64,000 nucleotides of DNA from Parcubacteria group bacterium (GTDB taxonomy: Bacteria; Patescibacteriota; Minisyncoccia; Phycocordibacterales; 21-14-all-47-15): positions 33,133-97,132 of the forward strand of contig JACOYO010000001.1 in NCBI GenBank assembly GCA_016181845.1, given 5' to 3'. The notes under the pieces are model-generated. The model saw only the letters and a program-made list of their open reading frames with translations. It made no database searches and was not told the origin of the DNA. Position numbers and translations under genes: made by a program. Positions 23,142 to 49,981 of the stretch are shown here, in pieces. Position 1 is the stretch's first letter; every line of letters starts with the position of its first letter.

Positions 23142-24506
23142 TTAACTAAACAAATGTCCTATTCGTTCCCGAATCCTATCAAGATTTCTTAGCGCGTCAA
23201 ATAAGGTATTGCTGAAAAGAAGCAGTGTAACAAGAGCCAAGACTTTCAATTCCCTGCGACCGCGCCATAAATCAAACAACCCATAACTGGCAAATATCGC
23301 AAAAAACGGATACACAAGAAATCGATACCTCGTTTCCACAATGATACCAATAATAGCGATGGGCATCATCACAAGCATCCAGAGTAACATTTTTGCGCGT
23401 TCTTTTTCATCCGCGGAAAGCTCTTTCATACGATAGATGCCCCAAAAACCGAAAATAAAAAGAATGGCGGAGTAAACCGCAGACAATGTAAGTGTTAAGG
23501 CCTTGCTCATTCCTTCCAGATGAAACCAAAATCCGGTCGGGCGAGCGAAACTAAAATAAATGGAAATTCGCTTAAAAGTAATTTCCAAAAATTCTATCGG
23601 ACGAGAGAAAATAAAGCCAAGCGATTCTTTGAGCGCGAGCTTATTCCCTTCTATCCTTCCCTCTTTCATAAATATTTCATTACCCTCGTACGGCTCAAGT
23701 TCGCCAGAGGCACCAGGATGATTTCCGGCAAGCAAATCATACCCAAACGCAAGGTTGGTCGGGATAAAGGTGTGATACATGCGATAATTGCGGACCGTCC
23801 ACGGAGTAAAGACAAGCGTAAGTACGATAAGAAACACGCCTAGTTCTTTCCAAAATTTTTGCCAGATAAAATAGCCCGCCAGCGGAAAGATTAAAAAAAG
23901 CGCCGGAGTGCGCACCAAGACCGCAAAACCAAATACCACGGCCAACAACATCAACAACCATATTGATGCATTGGCATTTCTTTCGATATATCGAAAGAAA
24001 ATATATACGCTTAAAATAATAAAAAATATCCCGAGTGTCTCTGTCATGAGCATGCCGTTTATCGTAATTAAATCGGGAGAAAAGCCGATAAGCCCAGCGG
24101 CAACGAGCCCGATTGGCAAGCTCCAATGTTCTTTGAATATTTGTTTGCTGATAAGAAAAATAAAAAACGCAGAAAATGCCGACAAAAGCGCATTAATAAT
24201 CCACACGACTTGATAGTGATGCCCGAACAAATAATAAACGCCAGCCAAAAAAAATTCATAACCGGGTCCGACGCGCAAAATGGCCAAATCTTCATCGTAT
24301 GAAAGATCCGCCTGCTCTTTATATCCGTTCCCCTGCACAAGATTCCATGCAATGTTGTCATATGCTCGCGCGTCAACCGCAGGTGCAATGTAAAAATAAA
24401 GAGAGTACGCATAGGCAACCAGAAAAATACCGAGAACGAGAAGGCCGATTATTTTTTTCTCCATATCGTCTTGATACAAACGAGAGAACATATTCTGCAA
24501 GGACAT
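23142..24506 (-). CDS. GT-C-family membrane glycosyltransferase (PMT/ArnT-like, GT39/GT83-type)
   Basis: ~13 transmembrane helices. N-terminal loop motif DARAYDNIAWNLVQGNGY resembles the first extracytoplasmic loop of PMT/ArnT enzymes. Sits next to a DPM1-like GT2. Confidence 0.55.
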   Translation of the reverse strand: MSLQNMFSRLYQDDMEKKIIGLLVLGIFLVAYAYSLYFYIAPAVDARAYDNIAWNLVQGNGYKEQADLSYDEDLAILRVGPGYEFFLAGVYYLFGHHYQVVWIINALLSAFSAFFIFLISKQIFKEHWSLPIGLVAAGLIGFSPDLITINGMLMTETLGIFFIILSVYIFFRYIERNANASIWLLMLLAVVFGFAVLVRTPALFLIFPLAGYFIWQKFWKELGVFLIVLTLVFTPWTVRNYRMYHTFIPTNLAFGYDLLAGNHPGASGELEPYEGNEIFMKEGRIEGNKLALKESLGFIFSRPIEFLEITFKRISIYFSFARPTGFWFHLEGMSKALTLTLSAVYSAILFIFGFWGIYRMKELSADEKERAKMLLWMLVMMPIAIIGIIVETRYRFLVYPFFAIFASYGLFDLWRGRRELKVLALVTLLLFSNTLFDALRNLDRIRERIGHLFS

Positions 24507-25650: not shown

Positions 25651-26289
25651 ATGTCATTTATCAAAACATTCGCGAAACTCCCCATTGATTTAGGTCAGGG
25701 ACAATTCCGCCACACCACAAAAGCAAAGCTCATCGCTTTTGACAGCGTCCCCAAAAATACAGCAGATCATACGGCACTTGATGTCGGATGCGGTGACGGA
25801 TATTGGTCTGAAAAATTAAAAAGTATCGGATATCGAACAACTTCGGTCGACATGAACAGACCATACCCGAATATAGACTGGGAAACCCCATACAAAGATA
25901 CTATTTTTACAGACCTCAATAAGAAACTGCCGTTTCAAGACGCTTCTTTTGATTTGGTTTGGTGTTCGGAAGTCATTGAACACCTGGAAAATCCTCAAGC
26001 GATAATAAAAGAAATCGAGCGCGTGATAAAACCCGGGGGAAAATATATTCTTACTACGCCAAACTCATTTTTTTGGCTTCATTATTTTTTGAAACTGTTC
26101 GGGTTCTCCCATAAAGATTGGCAAAATGAGGGACATAAATATTTCTTTCATATAGATGATATACAAAGTCTTTTCCCAAAGGCCAGTATTTACGGTTATT
26201 TCCCTTATCTAATATTAAAATTCAAAATTAAACACTTGATAGGCCTCCTCTCTCCAAACTTTGTTATCGTTGTGGAAAAAGCAAAATGA
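25651..26289 (+). CDS. Class I SAM-dependent methyltransferase
   Basis: LDVGCGDGYWS motif I, DLVWCSEVIEHL motif; ~210 aa. Overlaps the downstream GT-C gene start. Confidence 0.7.
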   Translation: MSFIKTFAKLPIDLGQGQFRHTTKAKLIAFDSVPKNTADHTALDVGCGDGYWSEKLKSIGYRTTSVDMNRPYPNIDWETPYKDTIFTDLNKKLPFQDASFDLVWCSEVIEHLENPQAIIKEIERVIKPGGKYILTTPNSFFWLHYFLKLFGFSHKDWQNEGHKYFFHIDDIQSLFPKASIYGYFPYLILKFKIKHLIGLLSPNFVIVVEKAK

Positions 26290-27770
26290 TTGAACGATTC
26301 AATACCATATTTGAAAAAGCAACCGGACAATACCTGCTTCAACTTACGTCAGGCAAAGCGGGCCTCTGGATTTCCGTATTGTTCATTTTTGTATTTATAA
26401 ATATTTTTTCCCTCTCGACACTTACGACAAAACCGGCGCTTTGGTATGACGAGGGAATAAATATAGAATTGGCGCGAAATTTTTCCGAATTTGGGAAACT
26501 TGATTTGATGGTTCGGCCGATGCAATTCTCCGGACAAGGCGCGCTTATCGGCTCAACTGGATACACAACCACGATTCCTCTTGCGGCATTTTTTAAACTG
26601 TTTGGCTTTGGACTGTCGCAGGCGAGAGTGTACATGCTCCTCTGGATGAACATCATGCTTTTCTGCTTATTTTATTTCGCGAGAAAAAAATGGGGCGTGA
26701 GTGTCGCTCTCGCCACATTATTTCTAGTCGCCACTTTCGCTCCTTTTTTTGGAAATGGCCGCAGTGTTATGGGAGAAATCCCCGGTTTTACGTTTTTGCT
26801 GCTTTCTCTTATTTGGTATACAGAAAAAAACAATCTATTTGGTGCGGGCTTTTTTCTTGGCTTGGCTGTGATAAGCAAGCCGTCCGTGTATGTTTTCTTT
26901 ATCCCAGCTTTTGTCATCTTGTTATTATTTGAAAAAAAAGATTTCTTTGCGCGCATTATTCGATCGGGTGCTGGCGCGGTATTGCCGCTTCTCATTTGGG
27001 CAGGCATATATCCCGACACTGCATTCTCCCCATCAACATGGAAAAGTTTGAGCGATCATGCGAGCAACCCATACGAGCAGGCGCAGGTCACTTCTTTAAT
27101 AAACATAAAAAATAATTTGGCGGCATTTTTTGAATCGCCAACCTTACTTTATTTCTTGCTGTTTGCAATCATAATCATAAGCGCCCTATACATAAAAAGA
27201 GATTTTTATGAACAGAACAAACAGATTATCATACTCACCGCCTCATACGGAATATTGGAATTTTTTTACTATTTAAAAAGCCTGGGCTATCTTCGGTATC
27301 TTATCGCCCTGCAATTCTTAATCTTCATACTCCTTGTCCCCGCTCTAGAGACGCTCGCGAGACGCTTCGCTCCTCCGCCATACGGCAGTATTGCCATACG
27401 CGCGTGCATAGCGATACTCGTATTGTTCCAAGCCGCGTATCTTTTTTCGGGGGCAAAACTTTTTTATTCGGACAGTTCACAAAAAACATTTCAATATCTG
27501 GAAAACAATTTTGAGGGGCAAATAATCGGTATCGTCAACCTGCCAACAATAGCAAGCCTTATTCCCTCAACCCAAAGAATGCAGACTATTTCTACATATG
27601 GGCTTGACAATGTGGGGGAACATCCTTTATCGCTTGTGGCGGAGGCCTTGCCGCCAGTTATTGTTTTTGAAAATAATCATGTCTTTGAACCCCAATACGC
27701 CGAGGTGTTAAAACAACATTATTTGCCGGAGAAAACAATCGGAAATATTTTGATATATCGAAAATATTAA
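26286..27770 (+). CDS. GT-C-family membrane glycosyltransferase (PMT-like)
   Basis: 12 or more transmembrane helices. First-loop motif LWYDEGINIELARNF (DE motif typical of GT39/PMT-like enzymes). Convergent with and overlapping a DPM1-like GT2. Confidence 0.5.
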   Translation: MIERFNTIFEKATGQYLLQLTSGKAGLWISVLFIFVFINIFSLSTLTTKPALWYDEGINIELARNFSEFGKLDLMVRPMQFSGQGALIGSTGYTTTIPLAAFFKLFGFGLSQARVYMLLWMNIMLFCLFYFARKKWGVSVALATLFLVATFAPFFGNGRSVMGEIPGFTFLLLSLIWYTEKNNLFGAGFFLGLAVISKPSVYVFFIPAFVILLLFEKKDFFARIIRSGAGAVLPLLIWAGIYPDTAFSPSTWKSLSDHASNPYEQAQVTSLINIKNNLAAFFESPTLLYFLLFAIIIISALYIKRDFYEQNKQIIILTASYGILEFFYYLKSLGYLRYLIALQFLIFILLVPALETLARRFAPPPYGSIAIRACIAILVLFQAAYLFSGAKLFYSDSSQKTFQYLENNFEGQIIGIVNLPTIASLIPSTQRMQTISTYGLDNVGEHPLSLVAEALPPVIVFENNHVFEPQYAEVLKQHYLPEKTIGNILIYRKY

Positions 27771-28483
27771 AAGTAAATATCAAAAAAAATCACGACGAAG
27801 TCTTTTATAATCCTCGGGATGTGCCCGAAGATACCGTAGACACTTTTTCTTTTCTCTTCACAAGTAACCGGAATTTCTTTTATTTTTAGGCCGGCACGAT
27901 TCGCGCGAATCAAAAATTCAGTATCAAGCAAATCGCGATGAGTCTTGCATTGGCTGAACACGGGGGCCGCTTTCTCTCGGTTAAAAATCTTGATGCCGTG
28001 GGTATCAGTCCCCGGATACCGAAAAAGCGCCCGCAACGCGAAATTAAATATTCGGTTGAGCATCCTTCTTGAAAGCGGCCTTAGGTCATGGGCTCCCGGC
28101 ATAGATTTAGAGCAAACGACAATATCGCTCTGCTCCTTTTCAAAAGAAACAAGCGCTTTTTTTACTGCATCCATGTCCCAAAAATCAATATTGAACACGG
28201 CAATATATGCGCCACTGCTTTTCAAAACACCTTGTTTAAGGGCGTTCCCGTATCCGGCAACCGGCAGAGATATGAGGCGTATTTGCGAATATAGAGAGGC
28301 AAGTTCTTTTGCAATCAATACCGTATTGTCAGTGCTGCCGTTTTCCACTAAAATAATTTCGTAGTCAGCACGGTACAAAAAAGTCTCCACCGCCACGATA
28401 ATCTTTTCAATTTCGGTTTTTAAAATTTCTTGCTCGTTATAAACGGGAATAACGATGGATAATTTCTTAGTGTCATGTTTCAT
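27767..28483 (-). CDS. GT2 polyprenyl-phosphate sugar synthase (DPM1-like)
   Basis: LSIVIPVYNEQE ... LVENGSTDNT ... DxD motifs; ~238 aa. Confidence 0.8.
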   Translation of the reverse strand: MKHDTKKLSIVIPVYNEQEILKTEIEKIIVAVETFLYRADYEIILVENGSTDNTVLIAKELASLYSQIRLISLPVAGYGNALKQGVLKSSGAYIAVFNIDFWDMDAVKKALVSFEKEQSDIVVCSKSMPGAHDLRPLSRRMLNRIFNFALRALFRYPGTDTHGIKIFNREKAAPVFSQCKTHRDLLDTEFLIRANRAGLKIKEIPVTCEEKRKSVYGIFGHIPRIIKDFVVIFFDIYF

Positions 28484-28511: not shown

Positions 28512-29561
28512 TCATTTTTCTCTATTGAGAAGGTCGGTCATTTTTTTTATGACAGAGACGCCGCTGTGGTTTTGTATCACCAGAGACTGAAGCTCGCGGA
28601 GTTCATATTTTGAGGCCGTCTTGATTTCTAATATTTTTTGGACAATATAATCTGCGTTGGTATTCCGCAAAAGATGTTTTTCTGGCAACATTGCAAAAAA
28701 AGCTTCGTTTGAAGTGAGCACGTTAACCCCTGACGCCATCGCTTCAAGGACCGCCTTATCAAGACTTCCGGTTTCGCTCAAATTGATAAAGAGATCGCTT
28801 TTTTGATAAAAGGAGTGGATATCGGAATACGAAACCGCGCCAACAAAAAACACGCTGTCATCTATCCCCTTCGCTTGTATCTCTTTTTTTAATCGAATGA
28901 AATAGTCATAATCCGCATTTGTAATCGGCGCCCCGACAATTTTCATTTCAAAAGAAACGCCTTCTTTTTTCAAAAGTTCTGCCGCTTCAAGCATCATGTG
29001 AATATTTTTTGCCGGCGTAATTCTACTGACAGAAAGAATATTCAATTTTTCGTGCGGCCACTTGTCCACCGGATGAAAACGCTCCGTATCAATCCCATGT
29101 CCTACTACATGCACCTTGTCGCTTTTCAAACGAAAACTTTCTTTTGAGGCGGTAAAGATAATATCGGATAATTTTTCCGCGACGCGCAATTTCATATCAA
29201 CCTGTTTGTGCGTATACCATAGCGCAATTTTTTTAGACAAAAGTTTCCAAAACACACCTCCGAGCAAAATATATATCGGATTCATGTGCACGAAGACCGT
29301 ATCGTAATTTTTTTTCTCATTCCAGATATATCTATAAAACCTTGCGATATATCGAAAGGTTTTTATTACAGTGGCACCAGCAAATTCTTCTTTGCCGAGC
29401 GATAATACGGAAACATTCTGCGGCAAATGGTATTTGCCTTTTTGCAAACAAATAACCGTAACTTTTTCAGCATGCTTGGCAAATTCTTCAATCCACCGGA
29501 CAAAAAAACCGAGGTTGTCGTCCTGTTCGTCCACTTTTTGAGTTATGATAAGCAGTCGCAT
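28512..29561 (-). CDS. Glycosyltransferase family 1 (GT4); contains the 28-bp palindrome, copy A, in frame
   Basis: C-terminal GT-B domain (GSLDKAVLEAMASGVNVL); ~349 aa. The palindrome encodes KTFRYIARFY. Confidence 0.8.
   Translation of the reverse strand: MRLLIITQKVDEQDDNLGFFVRWIEEFAKHAEKVTVICLQKGKYHLPQNVSVLSLGKEEFAGATVIKTFRYIARFYRYIWNEKKNYDTVFVHMNPIYILLGGVFWKLLSKKIALWYTHKQVDMKLRVAEKLSDIIFTASKESFRLKSDKVHVVGHGIDTERFHPVDKWPHEKLNILSVSRITPAKNIHMMLEAAELLKKEGVSFEMKIVGAPITNADYDYFIRLKKEIQAKGIDDSVFFVGAVSYSDIHSFYQKSDLFINLSETGSLDKAVLEAMASGVNVLTSNEAFFAMLPEKHLLRNTNADYIVQKILEIKTASKYELRELQSLVIQNHSGVSVIKKMTDLLNREK
29334..29366. repeat. 28-bp near-perfect palindrome AAAACCTTGCGATATATCGAAAGGTTTT (copy A), inside the GT4 CDS
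   Basis: Same palindrome at 42936-42966 and 49363-49393. Confidence 0.85.
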
Positions 29562-29567
29562 AAAAAA

Positions 29568-30677
29568 TTACAAATAAATAGCGCATGACTCCCACTGTTT
29601 TTTATATACCCGAAGATACTCTTCTTTTGAAATTTCATTTGATGCGCGTGTGAATCGCCCGCCGCTTGAAAGAGCCGCTGACAACGAGTCCGCGAGGCAG
29701 ATGGAATTGCCGACAGAGCATATAAAAACACCATCTCCTGAAACGACATCTCCCGCAATCCCCACATCAGTGGTTACTATGGGCAACCCTGCCCTATACG
29801 CCTCCACAAGCGAGAGCCCGTATCCTTCATAAAATGATGTGTGAAGATACACGTCGGCGGCGGCATAATAAGATGCAATTTCTTTTTGAGAGCCGACAAA
29901 TATAGCGCTGTCTTCCAATTTGAGATTTGAGATTTGGGACTTGAGATTTTTTCTCTCGCTTCCGTCACCAACAACAAGAAGCCCAGCTTTGGGATATGTT
30001 TTAATAATTTTTTCAAACACCTCAATCGCACGGGCAACATTTTTTTCCGGCTCAAGTCGCGAGACAACAAGAACGATTTTTTCAAACTGTGGAAACTCTG
30101 CGCGGACACGGCTGCCGTCCGCATTTTTGAATTTTTGAACATCGGTGAAAATCGGCAGTACGGCAATCGGCGCATTGGTGAATCCACTGATAGATTTTTT
30201 AATTCGCTCCGACACCACGCGGACACAATCGGCTTTGGGCAATAAAAATTTCGCAACCATCACCCGAATTTTATTTTTGATATTTTCCGCGGCAAAATAG
30301 TGGCTCATGAAATCGGTATGTACCTGCAGCTCAAGCCGCGCGCCAAGAGCGCGCGAGACGCGCCATCCGGCAAAACCGGTTTCAAACGGGTTTTGGCAAG
30401 TAACCAGGAAATCATGAGTCATGAATAATGAATCATGATTGATGCGCTTCGCGATTTTGTATGCGTCAAAAATATACAGCCAGCGGCTCAAAGAATTTGT
30501 GGAATAAATGAAAACATTGTCTGAAATCTTGATTCTTGATTCTTGATTCTTGATTCTTGCGCGGAAAATTATAATATGCAATTCTTCACACAATCTTCCA
30601 TACTCAATCATCCTCGCGCGCACCGCCGAGTCTTTTTCAAAAATTTTTGAATCAGTTGATAGCATTAGTACTCTCAT
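29568..30677 (-). CDS. Glycosyltransferase family 1 (GT4), paralogue 1 of a tandem pair, with two heptanucleotide tracts
   Basis: GT-B C-terminal domain (YGLSLVEAYRAGLPIVTT). Shares the peptide ERKNLKSQISNLKLE with the next gene. Confidence 0.8.
   Translation of the reverse strand: MRVLMLSTDSKIFEKDSAVRARMIEYGRLCEELHIIIFRARIKNQESRIKISDNVFIYSTNSLSRWLYIFDAYKIAKRINHDSLFMTHDFLVTCQNPFETGFAGWRVSRALGARLELQVHTDFMSHYFAAENIKNKIRVMVAKFLLPKADCVRVVSERIKKSISGFTNAPIAVLPIFTDVQKFKNADGSRVRAEFPQFEKIVLVVSRLEPEKNVARAIEVFEKIIKTYPKAGLLVVGDGSERKNLKSQISNLKLEDSAIFVGSQKEIASYYAAADVYLHTSFYEGYGLSLVEAYRAGLPIVTTDVGIAGDVVSGDGVFICSVGNSICLADSLSAALSSGGRFTRASNEISKEEYLRVYKKQWESCAIYL
29918..29952. repeat. Heptanucleotide repeat (GAGATTT)n, interrupted (gagattt gagattt gggactt gagattt), in GT4 paralogue 1
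   Basis: Coding strand AAATCTC units encode ..KSQISNLK.. in frame. One unit is degenerated by synonymous changes. Confidence 0.8.
30528..30560. repeat. Heptanucleotide repeat (TCTTGAT)x4.7 in GT4 paralogue 1
   Basis: Four perfect units plus a partial unit. Coding strand (AGAATCA)n encodes RIKNQESRIKIS. Confidence 0.85.
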
Positions 30678-31837
30678 AGTTGTTTAAAAAATTGAGTTAA
30701 ATTCTCAAGCATTTTTTCTTTTGAAAATCCCGCCGCTTTTTCACGCGCCGATTTTTCAAAACGCTGGCGCGCCACTGTCACATCCGCCAGTATTTCAATG
30801 ATTGCTTCTGCAAGAGCTTTTTTATCTTGATGCGTCACCAACCGCCCTGAAACGCTGTCTTCAATCAATTCAGAATTTCCGCCTACACGGGTCGTAACCA
30901 CGGGCACTCCCAAAGCCATCGCCTCAAGAATAGTGTGCGACAACCCTTCGTATCCGGTATTTAGCACGAATACATCCGCCACCATTAAATAAAGCATAGT
31001 GTCGTCGTGCGACAATTGCCCGATTAAGAATACGCTATTCTCCAATTTGAGATTTGAGATTTGAGATTTGAGATTCTTTCTTTCCGGCCCATCTCCGATA
31101 ATGTAGAGTTTTGCCTGCGGATATTTTTTTACTATTTCAGAAAACATTTCTATTAATGTTTCAAATCCTTTCCACGAAACAAGCCGCCCGATAGACACTA
31201 GTATCTCTCCTGGCCAGTCCCGCCCTTCAACGCGAGCCGGGGCGGACAAAAGAAGTCTCGCGCGAGCTTCATCGTGAGTGATATTTTGTTTCGGTAATTC
31301 AAACGCGTTATAGATAACTTCTACTTTTTCTGGAGCAACCCCCCATCCGTACACAATAATTTTTTTCAAATATTCGCTCGGCACAACTATCTTGTCCGCA
31401 TAGCGCGCCACATATTTTTGTATAGACCTACGCATTTCAATCCCAAGAGAATATTTTTTTCCCTGAAATTCATCCAACAAATCATATTCCTGATTTCTGA
31501 TTCCTGATTCCTGATTCACATATTCTTCCCACGCGCGGTCTCCTACAATTTTTACCACAAATTTTTTACCAAGTATTTTGGCGGCGCACAATGCGGGCAA
31601 GCCGACACCGAGCGGGTCTTGCGCGAAAATAATACCCGCCTCGGCTCCAGCGCGAAGCAGTTTGAAAAAATAAAAAAGATGTTTTACGCCAAAAGGCCAT
31701 TTTTTTACATCGCTCAATTTCACCACGGCAACCTGAAACCCACGGAGCGAGAGCTCGCGTTCCAAAAGAGCGGTGTATGTGGCCGGTCCGCCGATTTCGG
31801 GCGGATAGAGCGGTGTAGCAATAAGTATTTTTTGCAT
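30674..31837 (-). CDS. Glycosyltransferase family 1 (GT4), paralogue 2 of the tandem pair, with two heptanucleotide tracts
   Basis: GT-B C-terminal domain (YEGLSHTILEAMALGVPVVTT). Start taken at MQKILIATPLYPPEIGG; the ORF track extends to 31870 through a palindromic site. Confidence 0.8.
   Translation of the reverse strand: MQKILIATPLYPPEIGGPATYTALLERELSLRGFQVAVVKLSDVKKWPFGVKHLFYFFKLLRAGAEAGIIFAQDPLGVGLPALCAAKILGKKFVVKIVGDRAWEEYVNQESGIRNQEYDLLDEFQGKKYSLGIEMRRSIQKYVARYADKIVVPSEYLKKIIVYGWGVAPEKVEVIYNAFELPKQNITHDEARARLLLSAPARVEGRDWPGEILVSIGRLVSWKGFETLIEMFSEIVKKYPQAKLYIIGDGPERKNLKSQISNLKLENSVFLIGQLSHDDTMLYLMVADVFVLNTGYEGLSHTILEAMALGVPVVTTRVGGNSELIEDSVSGRLVTHQDKKALAEAIIEILADVTVARQRFEKSAREKAAGFSKEKMLENLTQFFKQL
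31049..31076. repeat. Heptanucleotide repeat (GAGATTT)x3 plus GAGATTC in GT4 paralogue 2
   Basis: Four tandem units. Coding strand (AAATCTC)n encodes NLKSQISNLK in frame. Confidence 0.85.
31489..31516. repeat. Heptanucleotide repeat (CCTGATT)x4, one imperfect, in GT4 paralogue 2
   Basis: Reads cctgatt tctgatt cctgatt cctgatt. Coding strand (GAATCAG)n encodes NQESGIRNQE. Confidence 0.8.
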
Positions 31838-31846
31838 AAGTTTATA

Positions 31847-31869
31847 TGTTGGACATCGGATGTCCAACA
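31847..31869. promoter_or_regulatory. 23-bp perfect palindrome TGTTGGACATC-G-GATGTCCAACA, ~10 nt upstream of the GT4 paralogue 2 start codon
   Basis: Perfect dyad symmetry. Positioned over the expected RBS / 5'UTR. Confidence 0.5.
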
Positions 31870-31902
31870 ATATCGTATGTTTTACTTAACCATCTTCAAC
31901 TT

Positions 31903-31937
31903 CCAAACTGTTGGACATCCGATGTCCAACAGTTTGG
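31903..31937. promoter_or_regulatory. 35-bp perfect palindrome CCAAACTGTTGGACATC-C-GATGTCCAACAGTTTGG, second copy of the same dyad core
   Basis: Shares the core TGTTGGACATC N GATGTCCAACA with the site 34 bp downstream. Abuts the E2 repeat. Confidence 0.5.
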
Positions 31938-32168
31938 AAGAAACTCGCTCTCTATCATAGTTTTTGAGAGACATTGCGGAGCCCACAGGCGAGCATAGCA
32001 AATCCTGCTCGCAAGCAGGTTCTGAAGCGAATATTTGAAGCTTCAGAAAACCTTTTGAGAATTTTTGCAAGTTTTGCGAAGTAAAAAATCCAAAAGGTGT
32101 ACTAATCCTGTAAGGATTATGCGCGTCTATCAAAAACTCATGATGAGGAAGAGTTTCGTAATTCATAG
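31938..32168. repeat. MITE-like intergenic repeat element, copy E2 (longest copy, ~230 bp)
   Basis: 5' module CTATCATAGTTTTTGAGAGACATTGCGGAGCCCACAGGCGAGCATAGCA. Hairpin AATCCTGCT-cgca-AGCAGGTT. About 100 bp of extra internal hairpins. 3' module ATGCGCGTCTATCAAAAACTCATGATGAGGAAGAGTTTCGTAATTCATAG. The 94-aa ORF 31882-32166 within it is treated as spurious. Confidence 0.7.
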
Positions 32169-39234: not shown

Positions 39235-39362
39235 AATTACGAAACTCGCCCTGAATCATAGTTTTTGAGAGACATTGCGGAGCCCACAGGCAAGCATAGC
39301 ATCCGCCCTGGGCGGAATGCGTGTCTTTCAAAAACCAACGATGAAGCAGAGAAATACAACCG
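39235..39362. repeat. MITE-like intergenic repeat element, copy E3
   Basis: GAATTACGAAACTCGCCCTGAATCATAGTTTTTGAGAGACATTGCGGAGCCCACAGG 5' module. GC-rich hairpin CATCCGCCC-tgg-GCGGAATG. 3' module ATGCGTGTCTTTCAAAAAC..ATGAAGCAGAG. The 94-aa ORF 39188-39472 is treated as spurious. Confidence 0.7.
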
Positions 39363-40709: not shown

Positions 40710-40750
40710 GAAATATCGATGTTATTTTTAATTTCGCCAATGAACAGCGA

Positions 40751-40802
40751 AACTAAGAGCCTGTTCATAATCTAATACTAACTGCGTTTAGATTATGAAC
40801 AG
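40751..40802. repeat. Inverted-repeat unit AACTAAGAGCCTGTTCATAATCTAA-tact-AACTGCGTTTAGATTATGAACAG (hairpin), downstream of pit
   Basis: Same unit occurs twice in inverted orientation upstream of the phoU-like gene (42619-42644 and 42786-42812). Confidence 0.7.
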
Positions 40803-40961: not shown

Positions 40962-41945
40962 CTACGAAAGAAACATCTCCGCGCGCATCAGCATGAAAGC
41001 AAAGAGCGCACACACGATGAAAGTGAATATCCACGCGGCAATGATATGTAGCGCGGTCCCCCAATGGACTCGCCCTATACCGCGGCTATACATCGCGCCC
41101 ATGAGAGACGAAAGTGTAGAGTGTGTCGTGGAAAGCGGGATCCCAAACGATGAGGCGAGAAGAATGACGAGCGACCCGGAAGTCTCCGTGGCGCACCCCT
41201 GCCATGATTCAATCCGCCCCATTTTTGAGCAGGTTTTGTGAATAATCTTCCTCCCGCCTAGAGCCGTCCCAAGCCCCATGATTCCTGCGCAAACATACGG
41301 CACCCACCATTCTATATGAAATTCAGAACTTGCGTGCCCAAGAACCATGGCAAGCGCTATGATACCGACAAACTTTTGTCCGTCATTCATGCCATGGTTG
41401 AATGCCATGAATCCGGCCGATAAAACTTGCGCGCGGTCAAAAAATCGCCGCATGGGTGTTACCGGTCTGTTTCCTGCAGTCGCTATAATTGTTTTGCAAA
41501 ACAAAAGCGAAAGAAAAAATCCGCCGATTGAGCAGAGAAACAACCCAAGCAGAACTTTAATCCAGCCAGTCCAAATCAACACTCCCATTCCTGCTTTTGC
41601 CACAGCGGCACCGCCGACGCTCGCGATAAGCGCGTGAGATTTGCTTATGGGGAAACCTTTTACAGCCCCCGCAAGAACTCCCCAGCACACGACCGAGAAT
41701 ATCGCGACTCCGAGCGTGGTCAAATCAATAAGCGCCGGATCTACGATTTCTTTTCCGACTGTTTTTGAAACTTTATCCCCAGCCAAGACACCGATGATAT
41801 TAAAAAATACCGCCATAGCAATGCCCATCGGCAGAGAAATGACACGCGTGCTCACCGATGTTGCGATAGCATTTGGCGCGTCAGTCCATCCGTTCACGAG
41901 CTCTGCGCACAGCGCAAGCACGATAACAACAGTTAAGAGTTCCAT
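40962..41945 (-). CDS. pit: Inorganic phosphate transporter, PiT family
   Basis: N-terminal LVNGWTDAPNAIATSV motif and a second GxNDGQK-type motif (NHGMNDGQKF); ~327 aa. Confidence 0.85.
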   Translation of the reverse strand: MELLTVVIVLALCAELVNGWTDAPNAIATSVSTRVISLPMGIAMAVFFNIIGVLAGDKVSKTVGKEIVDPALIDLTTLGVAIFSVVCWGVLAGAVKGFPISKSHALIASVGGAAVAKAGMGVLIWTGWIKVLLGLFLCSIGGFFLSLLFCKTIIATAGNRPVTPMRRFFDRAQVLSAGFMAFNHGMNDGQKFVGIIALAMVLGHASSEFHIEWWVPYVCAGIMGLGTALGGRKIIHKTCSKMGRIESWQGCATETSGSLVILLASSFGIPLSTTHSTLSSLMGAMYSRGIGRVHWGTALHIIAAWIFTFIVCALFAFMLMRAEMFLS

Positions 41946-41951
41946 GCTCGC

Positions 41952-42602
41952 TCACCGTCCTTCTTTGCGCACCACGCCGACGATAGTGACCGCGAGGTGA
42001 AAGCAGTGATTCGTCGTTTGTTCCAGTTTGGAAATGAGCTGCTCCCAGACATATCGCTCATTTTGAGCGATACCCAACACGAGAGCATCCTGCGACTTGA
42101 CCGCGCTACTGACATTGTCTGCCAATGTTTTGATACATCCCCATCGCAAGTCATCCGCTTCTCTTTCAAGTGCTTTGAGAATGCCGACAATCTCGCTTGC
42201 CCTCTGGGAAGAAAGCTTCGGGATTTGCGCCACCATCGCCTGAAGTTCGGATGTCATTTTTATGATAATCCACACAATCTGTACGCTGTGGGGAGTGAAT
42301 TGTTTTACGGAGTGACTCCGTATCCGGCGCACCACGCCTTCCATGCTGTCCAAAATATCATCCAGATTTTTGAACATGGCTTCAATGTCGCTTTTGTCCA
42401 ATTGGGTGATAAATGTTTTGGACAAGAGCTCATACCCCTGCCTCATACATTCATCGCCATCATGTTCACGGACAAGCACGCGGTCTTCTGCCGCTTGCGC
42501 TTTCTTTTCGTCACTGAAAACTGTATGCAAATGTGTTGCCGCATCAACGGCAAACTCAATTTGCTTTTCAAACAATTTTTGGAACTTATCATCCCTCGAC
42601 AT
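41952..42602 (-). CDS. PhoU-like DUF47-family Pit accessory/regulatory protein
   Basis: All-helical ~216-aa protein immediately upstream of pit in the same operon. Pattern typical of the DUF47 family. Confidence 0.6.
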   Translation of the reverse strand: MSRDDKFQKLFEKQIEFAVDAATHLHTVFSDEKKAQAAEDRVLVREHDGDECMRQGYELLSKTFITQLDKSDIEAMFKNLDDILDSMEGVVRRIRSHSVKQFTPHSVQIVWIIIKMTSELQAMVAQIPKLSSQRASEIVGILKALEREADDLRWGCIKTLADNVSSAVKSQDALVLGIAQNERYVWEQLISKLEQTTNHCFHLAVTIVGVVRKEGR

Positions 42603-42618
42603 TGCGCGCCTCCATTTA

Positions 42619-42812
42619 GAGCCTGTTCATAATCTAAACGCAGTCAGTATAAGACTAGACAATCGCTTGCCTGCCGAAATATTCAAAATTCTGCTGCAAA
42701 TTGCATATTTTTCGTCAGCGTATCTTGATATGCTTCCTCAAAATCCGCAATTTTCGCAACGAATTTTGAACATTCCGCCTAGGCATTAGATTATGAACAG
42801 GCTCTTAGTTTT
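42619..42812. repeat. Pair of perfect 19-bp inverted repeats (GAGCCTGTTCATAATCTAA ... TTAGATTATGAACAGGCTC) flanking 141 bp upstream of the phoU-pit operon
   Basis: Left arm 42619-42644 is extended by ACGCAGT. Right arm 42786-42812 is extended by TTAGTTTTTT. Same unit as at 40751-40802. Confidence 0.7.
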
Positions 42813-42935: not shown

Positions 42936-42966
42936 TAAAAACCTTTCGATATATCGAAAGGTTTTA
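42936..42966. repeat. 28-bp perfect palindrome AAAACCTTTCGATATATCGAAAGGTTTT (copy B), intergenic
   Basis: Perfect dyad. Copies at 29334-29366 and 49363-49393 differ only by T to G at one position. Confidence 0.85.
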
Positions 42967-43002: not shown

Positions 43003-44672
43003 TTATAAAAACAGACGCGCGAGACGTAAATCATCAAATGAGTACTCGCCCTTGAGTTTGCGGTGCGCGGGAGTTAATTTCATGTCTTTTGTCGCGGCAA
43101 ATGCCTCTTTTATTTTTTTGAAATCGCGCGCATCCGGCCTGAATCTGATTAAATCGCAATCTGGAAAAAGTGCTTTTATTTTTTCCAAATGTGAAATAAT
43201 TGTCCCCGGCGTCATGCCGCGCTCCTTCGCGATTGCTTGCAAAGAAAGTCCTCGCGCCACATACTCACGTGTCTTTTCGTAAGTTGAGACGCGCTGTTTC
43301 GGCGATTCTTTTTCTTTTTTGTGTTTCTCTCTGTTTTTCGCGATTTCTTTTTTATTGAGCGTCCCTCCGCAGGCGATAATAAATTTTTCATGCATCGCTT
43401 CAAGCTCTTTTTCTGAAAATTGCCGGAGTGAGCGCTCCCATTTGGAAGAATCAGCGAGCAATCTTTTATCAAGTACCGCGACATCGGGATACACGGCAAG
43501 CGCCATGTCGTTCATGCCGCGAAGAAAAAGCCCCGAAAGCGAGCGGAGCCGCGAGAGCGCCACATATCCCTGCCCTGGCACAAACGCTTGCGAGAGATCA
43601 ATCTCCGCCGCGTCCATGCTCATCCCCTGACTCTTATGAATCGTTATCGCCCATGCGAGCCGAAGCGGTAATTGGCTCACGGACGCGAGCGTTTTTTCGT
43701 CTTCTTTGATTTCCCATTCCGCTGAAGAAACAGCAATGTCCCTCCCGTCAAACGTCCGCACGACTGGCTGCTCGTCGTCAAAATCTGTCACCGTACCAAG
43801 CGTGCCGTTATTGTATCCTCCTTCTATATTATTTTTTACAAACATAACGACCGCGTCTTTTTTTAATTTCAGCGTTTCCGGAGCCAAAATATTTTTTTTC
43901 AATGTTTCTACCAAATGCAGCTTTCCTTTCGAGCGCATCTCGTACGTTTTCTCCTCGCCCGAAAGTTTACCCAATTCAATTTCGTTTTCGGCATCAACAT
44001 CGGCGTTGTGCGTATAAAGCCGCGTCGGAAGCGCACCGCTCTTCCTCTCTTTATATCCTGAAGCCATGAGAATTTTTTTGGTGTGCGAAGACACGGCGCC
44101 ACCACGTATTTCATTCAAAAGATTTTCCAGCACCGCGTCTCCGTGCCGAAATTGTTCATCAAGATAACAGACGCGGATGTCCGACGCTTTCCACGCGTCT
44201 GATACATGAATAAACTCCACCGCCATATTGCCGCGCGTAATTGGCGGCAGCTGAAAAAAATCGCCAGCAAGCACAATCTGCATCCCACCAAATGGTTTGT
44301 CACTTCGCTTCATCTCTCGGCACACGCGCTCCACCGTATCAAACAAGCGCGGAGAAAGCATGGACACTTCATCAATAACCAATATTTTTGTCTTTTCAAA
44401 CCGCTTCCACAAATATTCTTTTTGCGCGAGCGCTTCCAACTCATATTGCGAGAGCGTATCTCGGACGCCAACGCCCGACCACGAATGGAGCGTCACCCCG
44501 CCCAAATGAGTCGCGGCAATGCCGGTGGATGCCGTTACCGCTATCGGTATGCCGCGCTCTTTGATATATGAAATATATTTGTTCAGGACGTGCGTCTTCC
44601 CGCTGCCGGCGGCACCGGTAAGGTAAACATTTTTCCCCGCTTTAAGCACCTCAAGCGCTTGCGTCTGTTTCA
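43003..44672 (-). CDS. PIF1/RecD-like superfamily-1 DNA helicase with a C-terminal helix-turn-helix domain
   Basis: Start taken at MKQTQALEVLKAGKNVYLTGAAGSGKTH (Walker A). The ORF track extends further upstream. C-terminal ~100 aa has an HTH-like segment LSLQAIAKERGMTPGTIISHLEK. Confidence 0.7.
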
Positions 44673-44768
44673 TAAAAAATATTGTAGCACAACATGGTTG
44701 CTTTAATCTCCAAAAAGACTTTCGGTTTATCACCTTGACATGGCAAGTGATTAGTATACACTTGTAAA

Positions 44769-44858
44769 TACAAATGGCCTTCGGGCTCGGTTCATCGCAA
44801 GATGAACCAGACAAGTTCAAAAACGCGATTATAGCATAGCTTTAATCGCGTTTTTGAT
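44769..44858 (+). ncRNA. Candidate small RNA (~90 nt) with UUCG- and GCAA-capped hairpins and an intrinsic terminator
   Basis: Putative promoter TTGACA (44735-40), N16, TACACT (44757-62). Hairpins GGCC-UUCG-GGCU (44776-87), GGUUCAUC-GCAA-GAUGAACC (44789-808) and AAAAACGCGAUUA ... UAAUCGCGUUUUU (44819-55), followed by a U-run. No ORF. Confidence 0.35.
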
Positions 44859-49192: not shown

Positions 49193-49981
49193 ATGCAAGA
49201 AAAGAGAAGGGAAAAGAAAAAAATGCGGTGGAGAAAACAAAAACGCCAAGCCAGCTCTTTTTGGGAAAAAGAATATAAGAGCGGCGAGCATTTGGCTCTC
49301 TCGACAAGCGCGAGCGAAGACCTGCAAAAATTCACGCGGTGGCTTTCGCGCGAAAATGATAATAAAACCTTGCGATATATCGAAAGGTTTTTACCAGTAA
49401 ATAAATACTCGACGACAAAAGCATCCGTTGCTGATTTAGGCACCGGCAATGGGAGAAATCTTATATACCTTGCAGAAACGTTCGGCATGAAAGGCACTGG
49501 ATTTGATATTTCCCGCGAGGCGATTGAACAGGCAAAAATCGCGAGCAAAAACAAAAATTTGCCGCTTGAATTTTTCGTGCGCTCAATCGCGGAGCCAATT
49601 CCACTGCCCGATAATTCACAAGACATCGTCCTTGATATGATGACCTCGCATTTTTTAAACAACTCCGAGCGAGCGATCCTCCTTTCCGAAATCGCGCGCA
49701 TTTTGAAACCGGGCGGCTTTCTTTTTTTCAAAACATTTCTTCTTGATGAGGATATTCACGCGGCGCGTCTTTTGCGCGAGCACCCAGCGGGAGAACCGGG
49801 CTCATACATTCACCCTGAAATCGGCAAAGCCGAGCATGTATTCACCGAAAATGAAATCGTTGCTCTCTTTTCTCACTATTTCACGATACGAAAAATTACC
49901 AAATCGCACCGCCACAAAATCAAAGGACATGCCGCCAAACGCAGAAGCATTTCCGTATACGCAGAAAAAGAAATCCGTTAA
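49193..49981 (+). CDS. Class I SAM-dependent methyltransferase; contains the 28-bp palindrome, copy C, in frame
   Basis: ADLGTGNGRNLIYLAE motif I, ILKPGGFLFFKTF. Start uncertain (Lys/Arg-rich N-terminus). The palindrome encodes KTLRYIERFL. Confidence 0.65.
   Translation: MQEKRREKKKMRWRKQKRQASSFWEKEYKSGEHLALSTSASEDLQKFTRWLSRENDNKTLRYIERFLPVNKYSTTKASVADLGTGNGRNLIYLAETFGMKGTGFDISREAIEQAKIASKNKNLPLEFFVRSIAEPIPLPDNSQDIVLDMMTSHFLNNSERAILLSEIARILKPGGFLFFKTFLLDEDIHAARLLREHPAGEPGSYIHPEIGKAEHVFTENEIVALFSHYFTIRKITKSHRHKIKGHAAKRRSISVYAEKEIR
49363..49393. repeat. 28-bp near-perfect palindrome AAAACCTTGCGATATATCGAAAGGTTTT (copy C), inside the methyltransferase CDS
   Basis: Identical to copy A. Flanking sequence is unrelated. 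Confidence 0.85.

Follow-up and report, generated by a model that had tools for sequence, protein, structure and literature searches.

The stretch of DNA considered here (the window, 64,000 nucleotides or 64 kb) comes from a Parcubacteria group bacterium of the candidate phyla radiation (CPR; assembly GCA_016181845.1, contig JACOYO010000001.1, positions 33,133 to 97,132 of the forward strand). At 29336–29363, and again at 49364–49391, it carries the palindromic sequence AAAACCTTGCGATATATCGAAAGGTTTT. Each copy lies within a gene, and the two genes are unrelated. Copy A (29334–29365, ATAAAACCTTGCGATATATCGAAAGGTTTTTA) sits in the minus-strand gene at 28512–29561 for a family 4 glycosyltransferase (GT4) of 349 aa, where, read on the minus strand, it encodes I66–Y76 (IKTFRYIARFY). 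Copy C (49362–49393) sits in the plus-strand gene at 49193–49981 for a class I S-adenosylmethionine-dependent methyltransferase of 262 aa, where it reads K-T-L-R-Y-I-E-R-F-L. On the plus strand the copies are identical at 32 of 32 nt (29334–29365 = 49362–49393), and both carry the same G..A asymmetry in an otherwise symmetric unit. Both open reading frames (ORFs) are 100% identical to deposited proteins, the first to a ‘glycosyltransferase family 4 protein’ of a Parcubacteria metagenome-assembled genome (MAG) and the second to a methyltransferase, also from a MAG of a Parcubacteria group bacterium. Homologues of each number in the thousands, and the nearest named relatives are Candidatus Lloydbacteria. 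A preliminary description of this DNA had reported a 28-bp palindrome translated in frame inside these two genes, as KTFRYIARFY and KTLRYIERFL. The sequence, the ORFs and the deposited homologues all agree with it, and 100 dinucleotide shuffles of the window put the number of matches expected by chance at 0.00.

The window holds three further members of the same family. Copy B (42938–42965, AAAACCTTTCGATATATCGAAAGGTTTT) is intergenic and perfectly palindromic, with T in place of G (the T..A form). It stands 37 nt past the stop of a PIF1-like helicase gene (43003–44820, minus strand) and 335 nt upstream of a DUF47/PhoU_div gene, and the RNA hairpin predicted for it is worth −13.8 to −15.7 kcal/mol (z about −4.3 to −5), within the −9 to −16 kcal/mol calculated for the window copies. 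The other two members were not among the copies listed earlier. One, at 23977–24000 (TTTCTTTCGATATATCGAAAGAAA), is a perfect 24-nt palindrome that shares the 16-nt centre of the family but differs in its outer arms; it lies in frame within a PMT_2 gene (23142–24506, minus strand) and is read there as IFFRYIERN. The other, the fifth copy in the window, is a decayed one at 27744–27768 (AATATTTTGATATATCGAAAATATT) that spans the final eight codons (NILIYRKY) and the first stop-codon base of a second PMT_2 gene (26286–27770, plus strand), and abuts the stop of the convergent family 2 glycosyltransferase (GT2) gene at 27767–28483 (minus strand). A decayed orthologous copy is found at the matching PMT_2/GT2 junction in locus L098. 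Chance would give 0.08 occurrences of the 10-nt centre, CGATATATCG, in the window, which has four.

The palindrome can be written as two half-sites, AAAACCTTNCGATATATCGN'AAGGTTTT, and all three frames through the unit are open, giving KTFRYIERF, KPFDISKGF and NLSIYRKV. The T..A, G..C and G..A forms have no stop codon in any frame, and the A..T form has one in one frame. The idea that palindromy itself fixes the peptide has to be given up, then: both hosts in the window happen to use the same frame, and intragenic copies in other genomes make use of all three between them. Within the 64 kb, nothing matched Rfam at gathering thresholds, and no tRNA genes were found.

The two coding copies turn out to have different histories. 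That in the methyltransferase is a genuine, recent and lineage-unique insertion in a disordered loop. The insert (49364–49399, plus strand, KTLRYIERFLPV) comprises 12 codons, K58–V69, and alignment at the DNA level with three orthologous loci places these 12 codons where a single Q/E codon had been, for a net gain of 33 nt. The insert is missing from 24 of 24 homologues, including those 81–86% identical, and it is unique among 120 homologues; its linker, which could be located in 102 homologues, measures 15 aa in 93 of these, and a length of 28 aa is found here alone. In the AlphaFold model (mean predicted local distance difference test score, pLDDT, 84.6) the inserted residues form coil with pLDDT below 50, with helix 42–56 on one side and strand beta-1 (78–82) on the other. 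A 6-nt direct repeat, AATAAA, borders the insert; it counts for little in DNA so rich in A and T, and it is the sole candidate for a target-site duplication, no clear one having been found.

The GT4 copy, in contrast, is half ancestral. The GT4 orthologues L101 and L102 are without the palindrome, yet they retain its right arm, TATATCGCAAGGTTTTAT, and with it the residues Y-I-A-R-F-Y, which belong to the motif Y[IL]x[RN]FYxYIW found throughout the family. The right arm is ancestral coding sequence and the left arm alone is extra, adding four to five codons. The odd base of the copy lies in the alanine codon GCA, which the palindrome-free orthologues have too, and the left arm is of the T form, as in intergenic copy B. 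In the GT4 model (pLDDT 92.8) the palindrome residues make up the N-terminal half of helix 64–85. The preliminary description had placed both copies in loop-like regions as insertions of 9–10 residues, and had looked to orthologues with the same residues but no palindrome as the sign of an ancestral peptide. For the methyltransferase the loop and the insertion both stand, at 12 codons in place of one; for GT4 the loop is a helix, only the left arm is extra, and half of the residues, those of the right arm, are indeed present without the palindrome in L101 and L102.

Among GT4 relatives the palindrome comes and goes. L098 has a perfect copy at the matching codons, L099 and L100 have partly decayed ones, and the equally close L101 and L102 have none. 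With relatedness taken from a ranking by identity, P0003 has the palindrome and its nearest relative, P0004 (85% identical), lacks it; likewise P0005 has it and P0006 (80%) does not. Perfect copies at the matching codons recur in two distant lineages, L103/P0050 (~55% identical) and L051 of the genome NZBM01 (~41%), so that three distant lineages, each surrounded by relatives without the palindrome, have it at identical codons. Nearby, an 82-nt repeat (29893–29974 and 31020–31101, 74% identical, with tandem TTTGAGA heptamers inside) encodes low-complexity segments of the SQISNLK type in at least one GT4-family ORF (29568–30677), and similar ‘KFKIQNSKF’ inserts occur in a loop of many GT4 homologues.

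Two further cases involve replacement without any change in length. The PMT_2 peptide encoded at 23977–24000 aligns without gaps with the family motif Y[FL][FL]F[KR]Y[IF][EN], and no insertion is present. In DprA, a gene of other genomes, one copy (AAACCTTTCGATATATCGAAAGGTTT) lies in locus L033, where the protein reads PFDISKG at the position at which the closest clade has LYD[ITVA]SYK; the centre is mutated in close relatives (LYD[TVA]SY). The orthologue in L184, whose protein is 79% identical, has TTTGTACGATATATCGTACAAA at the exact position of AAACCTTTCGATATATCGAAAGGTTT, and this same arm variant also flanks HTH (helix-turn-helix) genes at other loci, of which more below. One orthologous site thus holds two variants of the family, both arms having been exchanged together with the length unchanged. 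DprA was considered as a second clean insertion and rejected as such, since its 120 homologues are all of similar length (273–305 aa) and the site is a replacement. Elsewhere, convincing intragenic cases are few: besides DprA they comprise ArgRS, where the copy sits in an inter-domain linker, a 6-phosphogluconolactonase-like (6PGL-like) protein, a polysaccharide deacetylase, a reverse transcriptase and the GT4 orthologue.

The extent of the family became apparent when the exact pattern AACCTTNCGATATATCGNAAGGTT was scanned in 185,579 species-representative genomes, one per species, amounting to 596 Gb. It was found in 94 stretches, as 99 copies, in 34 assemblies, with up to 14 copies in one genome, and the labels of these assemblies are almost all Parcubacteria/Paceibacterota, ‘Saccharibacteria’, Wolfe-, Woese-, Kaiser-, Taylor- or Azambacteria. 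In 95 of the 99 copies, pattern positions 7 and 18 change together (T..A, A..T, G..C or C..G); the G..A asymmetry of copies A and C recurs in other genomes in 4 of the 99. The form is often uniform per genome: all 14 copies are A..T in NZBM01, the GT4 copy included, all seven are G..C in NVTD01 and all seven are T..A in CAYHJR01. Flanks specific to each locus lengthen the dyad to arms of 13–38 nt, such that the centre, CGATATATCG, is constant and the arms are lineage-specific yet symmetric. Copies with extended arms give hairpins of −35 to −50 kcal/mol, and an A-tract and a T-tract flank the copies. They occur singly, without REPIN doublets, and form pairs, 430–750 nt apart, just around the HTH gene.

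Most copies lie outside genes. By rough gene calls based on greedy ORFs, convergent genes flank 30 copies, tandem genes 33 (for the most part 5–60 nt past the upstream stop) and divergent genes seven, four of these seven adjoining an HTH gene; ~85% of copies are intergenic and ~8–16% intragenic, in CPR genomes that are expected to be about 90% coding. IMG/VR viral contigs gave 0 matches to the palindrome, and a phage origin was rejected on that account. DNA uptake sequences were set aside too, there being far too few copies per genome, and parS, dif and telomere-resolution sites were set aside on sequence and copy number.

The exact 24-mer was also seen in a few MAGs that are not labelled CPR: L055 (Opitutales), L077 (Sphingobacterium), L041 and L090 (Patiriisocius), L045 (Gammaproteobacteria) and L084 (Caldisericota), two such MAGs having the C..G form. 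These could be CPR contigs binned in the wrong genome, or could mark transfer beyond the CPR. In L044, L059, L065, L066 and L075 the copy lies within a few bases of a contig end, which suggests that the hairpin, or the repeat, breaks short-read assemblies at the palindrome.

The gene that accompanies the palindrome encodes a small HTH protein. In four genomes (L003, L020, L028 and L035) pairs of copies 430–510 nt apart bracket a gene of ~135 aa, and the same gene adjoins one copy in six further loci. Its product matches the Pfam family Trp_repressor (PF01371), three of four proteins scoring above the gathering threshold (41.1, 30.9 and 39.8 versus 27 bits); further Pfam matches are to generic HTH families only, the NCBIfam/TIGRFAM match to YerC/TrpR is weak and below the cut-offs, and the PDB matches are to the TrpR-like structures 3frw, 3g1c and 3kor. 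No significant match to the protein came from PHROGs or PADLOC, and a weak NCBIfam match to Cbp1, the HTH protein that binds CRISPR repeats (E 0.002, far below cut-off), was disregarded. As an independent test of the association, metagenome loci were chosen solely by similarity to the HTH protein. Among the 71 distinct loci so obtained, a CGATATATCG-type palindrome is present on both sides of the gene in 61, on one side in seven and on neither in three. In 38 of the 61 bracketed loci the paired copies agree at no fewer than 20 of 22 nt, and in many loci a palindrome lies 0–25 nt upstream of the start codon. The outer arms vary by lineage here as well (AATCATA..., AACTATA..., TTTACTA..., TGTA..., AATGTGTT...), and some lineages have the centre CAGTATACTG or CAATATATTG. 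Regulators of the TrpR family, such as TrpR and HisR (= YerC), bind palindromes of ~20 bp whose consensus is lineage-specific (PMC9413887), and by analogy the HTH protein would be expected to bind the palindromes around its gene.

In three CPR genomes (L003, L028 and L056) the synteny of the HTH gene is kept, in the order tRNA-Cys, tRNA-Leu(taa) and the palindrome-flanked gene. The gene consequently looks to be a stable chromosomal one, rather than mobile. NZBM01 has two HTH paralogues, at L035 and L056, which are 58% identical.

NZBM01 (MAG ARS1360; loci L018, L027, L042, L048, L056, L066, L068, L073 and L087) has also built the palindrome into something larger. Its A..T form is the apical hairpin of a conserved repeat of ~140 nt, which holds a second perfect palindrome, CCCAGCACCTAACGCGTTAGGTGCTGGG, and which, at the loci with a tRNA, lies 110–220 nt 3' of at least eight different tRNA genes. 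In L042, L068, L073 and L087 a second copy of the tRNA 3' end, from the T-loop onward, comes after the repeat. Rfam, searched with four NZBM01 loci at E≤1, returned only the tRNAs and no family for the repeat. The repeat has the look of a miniature element with tRNA genes as its targets.

The reading we prefer, at a probability of roughly 0.55, is that copies A and C are members of a CPR-wide family of palindromes resembling repetitive extragenic palindromes (REPs), that they are putative sites for the HTH protein, and that they have been spread and homogenized by short-patch copying, with the encoded peptide incidental. The ~135-aa Trp-repressor-family protein would have the palindrome as its putative cognate site, with one copy on each side of its own gene; most likely a dimer would sit on the double-stranded palindrome, as TrpR and HisR do on their palindromic operators of ~20 bp. 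Downstream of genes, the A-tract, stem and T-tract might form a hairpin acting as a bidirectional, terminator-like structure. New copies would be made, and old ones overwritten, by short-patch copying from copies elsewhere in the genome, perhaps by ectopic conversion or by template switching. Coding copies would be tolerated because the unit, in most forms, is free of stops, because the net change in length is a multiple of three, and because they fall either in a disordered linker, as with the +33 nt of the methyltransferase, or where the host codons were already similar to an arm or to the centre, such as YIARFY in GT4 (the right arm), FF[KR]YIE in PMT_2 and YDISY in DprA. The peptide K-T-(F/L)-R-Y-I-x-R-F would then be a by-product and not a target of selection. 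Copies A and C share the rare G..A form, palindrome-free orthologues have the GCA codon too, and the left arm has the T form of copy B. Most simply, then, GT4 would hold a chimera, its left arm supplied by a donor and its right half-site already resident, and this chimera would have served as template for the methyltransferase insert, the direction being one that we infer.

Several observations weigh against this account. Among the 70 intergenic sites with a called gene on both sides, 30 lie between convergent genes, which is unlike a classical operator. The HTH gene was sought in the window by tblastn and nothing better than E=0.05 was obtained. Copy B was not called by a simple terminator scan, and its stem has few G-C pairs. 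The common centre, at 10 nt, is too short for ordinary RecA-type conversion, which leaves the copying with no known enzyme. The patchy presence in GT4 could possibly stem from allelic recombination between strains instead of repeated conversion; and the retention of sites in orthologues (DprA, GT4 and the PMT_2/GT2 junction) could mean that intragenic sites are themselves selected.

The methyltransferase copy is what would be expected of a miniature, autonomous-looking selfish element, akin to a Rickettsia palindromic element (RPE) or a miniature inverted-repeat transposable element (MITE), that transposes in frame into genes and adds a conserved peptide to them: it is a clean, lineage-unique insertion of 33 nt, identical to copy A in sequence and flanked by the AATAAA repeat. 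The two arms of the palindrome could be read as abutted terminal inverted repeats. In-frame copies in unrelated genes and in all three frames (DprA, ArgRS, the 6PGL-like protein, the polysaccharide deacetylase and the reverse transcriptase) point the same way, as does the mobile appearance of the NZBM01 repeat after at least eight tRNA genes, several with a duplicated 3' end. We nevertheless consider such an element unlikely. No partner transposase was found, viral contigs lack matches, and AATAAA is weak testimony in AT-rich DNA. Coding DNA is strongly depleted of copies (8–16% intragenic); those in GT4, PMT_2 and DprA lie over ancestral residues, with little or no net insertion; and orthologues are occupied at identical sites. 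The centre, moreover, has stayed the same in deeply separated CPR lineages, and the arms vary in step with an HTH gene that is chromosomal and keeps its tRNA-Cys/tRNA-Leu synteny.

Occupancy of identical sites would be read differently if the intragenic copies in GT4, PMT_2, the methyltransferase and DprA were selected regulatory sites, either internal operators or roadblocks formed by the HTH protein, or chromosome organizers of the parS type. The palindrome has an unchanged codon position in GT4 in three distant lineages, the DprA arms have been updated to another variant, and the copies at 23977, 27744 and 29334 cluster within less than 6 kb of one glycosylation locus, with the junction site kept in L098. 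The methyltransferase site, however, exists in one genome only, decay has set in at the GT4 copies of L099 and L100, close relatives have mutations in the DprA centre and many close orthologues have no site at all, and we regard this reading as somewhat less probable again than the selfish element. Position and hairpin strength bear on a third view, in which the copies are merely RNA hairpins, like intrinsic terminators or mRNA stabilizers, and their association with the protein is incidental. Copies 5–60 nt past stop codons, enrichment between convergent genes, A- and T-tract flanks and stem extensions that take hairpins up to −35 and −50 kcal/mol would all suit it; the position and the T-run fit an intrinsic terminator, although the consensus scan made no call at copy B. 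A hairpin, though, has no need of a self-complementary loop and centre conserved across phyla, nor of copies directly upstream of the HTH start codon, divergent arrangements included; copies A and C are mismatched as G-A and U-C, which are not wobble pairs; and no Rfam family was matched. We think this very unlikely to be the whole story. That ancestral peptides are simply encoded by codons palindromic by chance would accord with the GT4 right arm and with the entire PMT_2 copy, which lie over ancestral residues, but it is effectively refuted by the zero chance matches expected, by the 32/32 identity of copies A and C between unrelated genes, and by the presence of the 24-mer in 34 genomes, against roughly 0.07 chance matches in 596 Gb by an estimate made by hand.

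Of known systems, the closest analogue in architecture is that of the REPs and REPINs with their RAYT proteins, in which repetitive extragenic palindromes go together with an associated tyrosine transposase (PMC3116915, PMC3337134, PMC5581495). The likenesses are considerable: short (20–40 nt) dispersed palindromes in tens of copies, mostly extragenic and at gene 3' ends or between convergent genes; sequences that are lineage-specific and homogeneous within a genome; and a chromosomal, vertically inherited and usually single-copy partner gene flanked by repeats (61 of 71 loci). The CPR family is nevertheless not a member, since an HTH-only protein of the Trp_repressor family takes the place of the defining tyrosine transposase, which is of the IS200/IS605 Y1 type. 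The CPR palindromes are also without REPIN doublets or the 5' GTAG motif; they have a perfect dyad with a deeply conserved centre, number about 5–15 copies per genome and not hundreds, and occur in the CPR. With TrpR/HisR (YerC) operators (PMC9413887) they share the Pfam family of the protein, perfect palindromy over roughly 20 bp, a lineage-specific consensus and a site beside the regulator gene. They differ in that the CPR protein has ~135 aa, against profiles of 88–94 positions for TrpR/YerC and solved TrpR-like chains of 104–119 aa, and in that the sites, which are near-perfectly identical to one another and arise anew by insertion, are found for the most part past gene ends, between convergent genes or within coding sequence.

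Centromere-like or nucleoid-protein sites inside genes, such as those of the parS/ParB kind, are similar in that a genome has between a few and tens of them, all perfect palindromes, some in frame within coding sequence and some at or near the gene for the binding protein, with a widely conserved core; the sequence and the protein family are not the same. The LexA motif of Patescibacteria is likewise a different, direct-repeat motif and was rejected. RPEs, to which the preliminary description had likened the palindrome as a very small peptide-coding selfish element, resemble it as palindromic repeats in frame inside unrelated genes, and the methyltransferase insert, absent from orthologues, modelled as a disordered loop and with the ORF intact, is quite in their manner. 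RPEs are about 150 bp long (PMC10969869), however, and the 28–36 nt of the window unit fall well outside their size range of 100–150 bp. In-frame insertion is seen in full in the methyltransferase, by half in GT4 and not at all in PMT_2 or DprA. The palindrome, furthermore, is mostly intergenic, uses all three frames, overlies ancestral residues in several cases, is linked to the gene of a DNA-binding protein with no transposase found, and has no sequence relation to RPEs, and the comparison does not hold for the family as a whole.

Literature searches on the motif, and on palindromic or REP elements in the CPR, found no published description of the palindrome or of its pairing with the HTH gene. 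It is conceivable, and we suggest it tentatively, that these parts add up to an unreported REP-like system of the CPR, in which perfect palindromes are maintained, homogenized and sometimes copied to new sites, some of them in frame within genes, with an HTH-only, Trp-repressor-like partner in place of a transposase, orthologous intragenic sites being ‘updated’ as the arm sequence changes. If so, this would be a family of self-propagating binding sites that remodels proteins as well. The CPR, or Patescibacteria, have tiny genomes and, to our knowledge, almost no experimentally characterized regulators, and a deeply conserved palindrome paired with a single small HTH protein makes a candidate global system of DNA binding among them. 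The coding copies show how non-coding sequence can enter proteins, as a fresh loop of 12 codons in one case and laid over site-like host codons in the others. The en-bloc swap of arms in DprA suggests copying or conversion on units of less than 30 nt, and we know of no enzyme that does this. Annotators and alignment pipelines should expect palindrome-encoded segments of 9–12 residues in CPR proteins.

The window holds other repeats as well. A repeat of 20–27 nt, AGAGCCTGTTCATAATCTAA, has three copies (40750–40776, 42616–42657 and 42785–42811), two of which are 100% complementary over 27 nt. These adjoin copy B and frame, at 40962–42602, the DUF47/PhoU_div gene together with an adjacent ORF for a 327-aa membrane protein, possibly a phosphate transporter; the repeats may be sites for a regulator or may bound a cassette. 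Two perfect 23-nt palindromes, TGTTGGACATC(G/C)GATGTCCAACA, lie at 31847–31869 and 31909–31931 with 39 nt between them, and 31900–31940 contains a perfect inverted repeat of 20 nt. Repeats of 38–61 nt with 93–100% identity, GAAACTCGC...AATCATAGTTTTTGAGAGACATTGCGGAG... and AGGATTATGCGCGTCTATCAAAAAC..., occur at 428–531, 31940–32150 and 39241–39348, and probably reflect paralogous genes with conserved starts or an upstream element in common.

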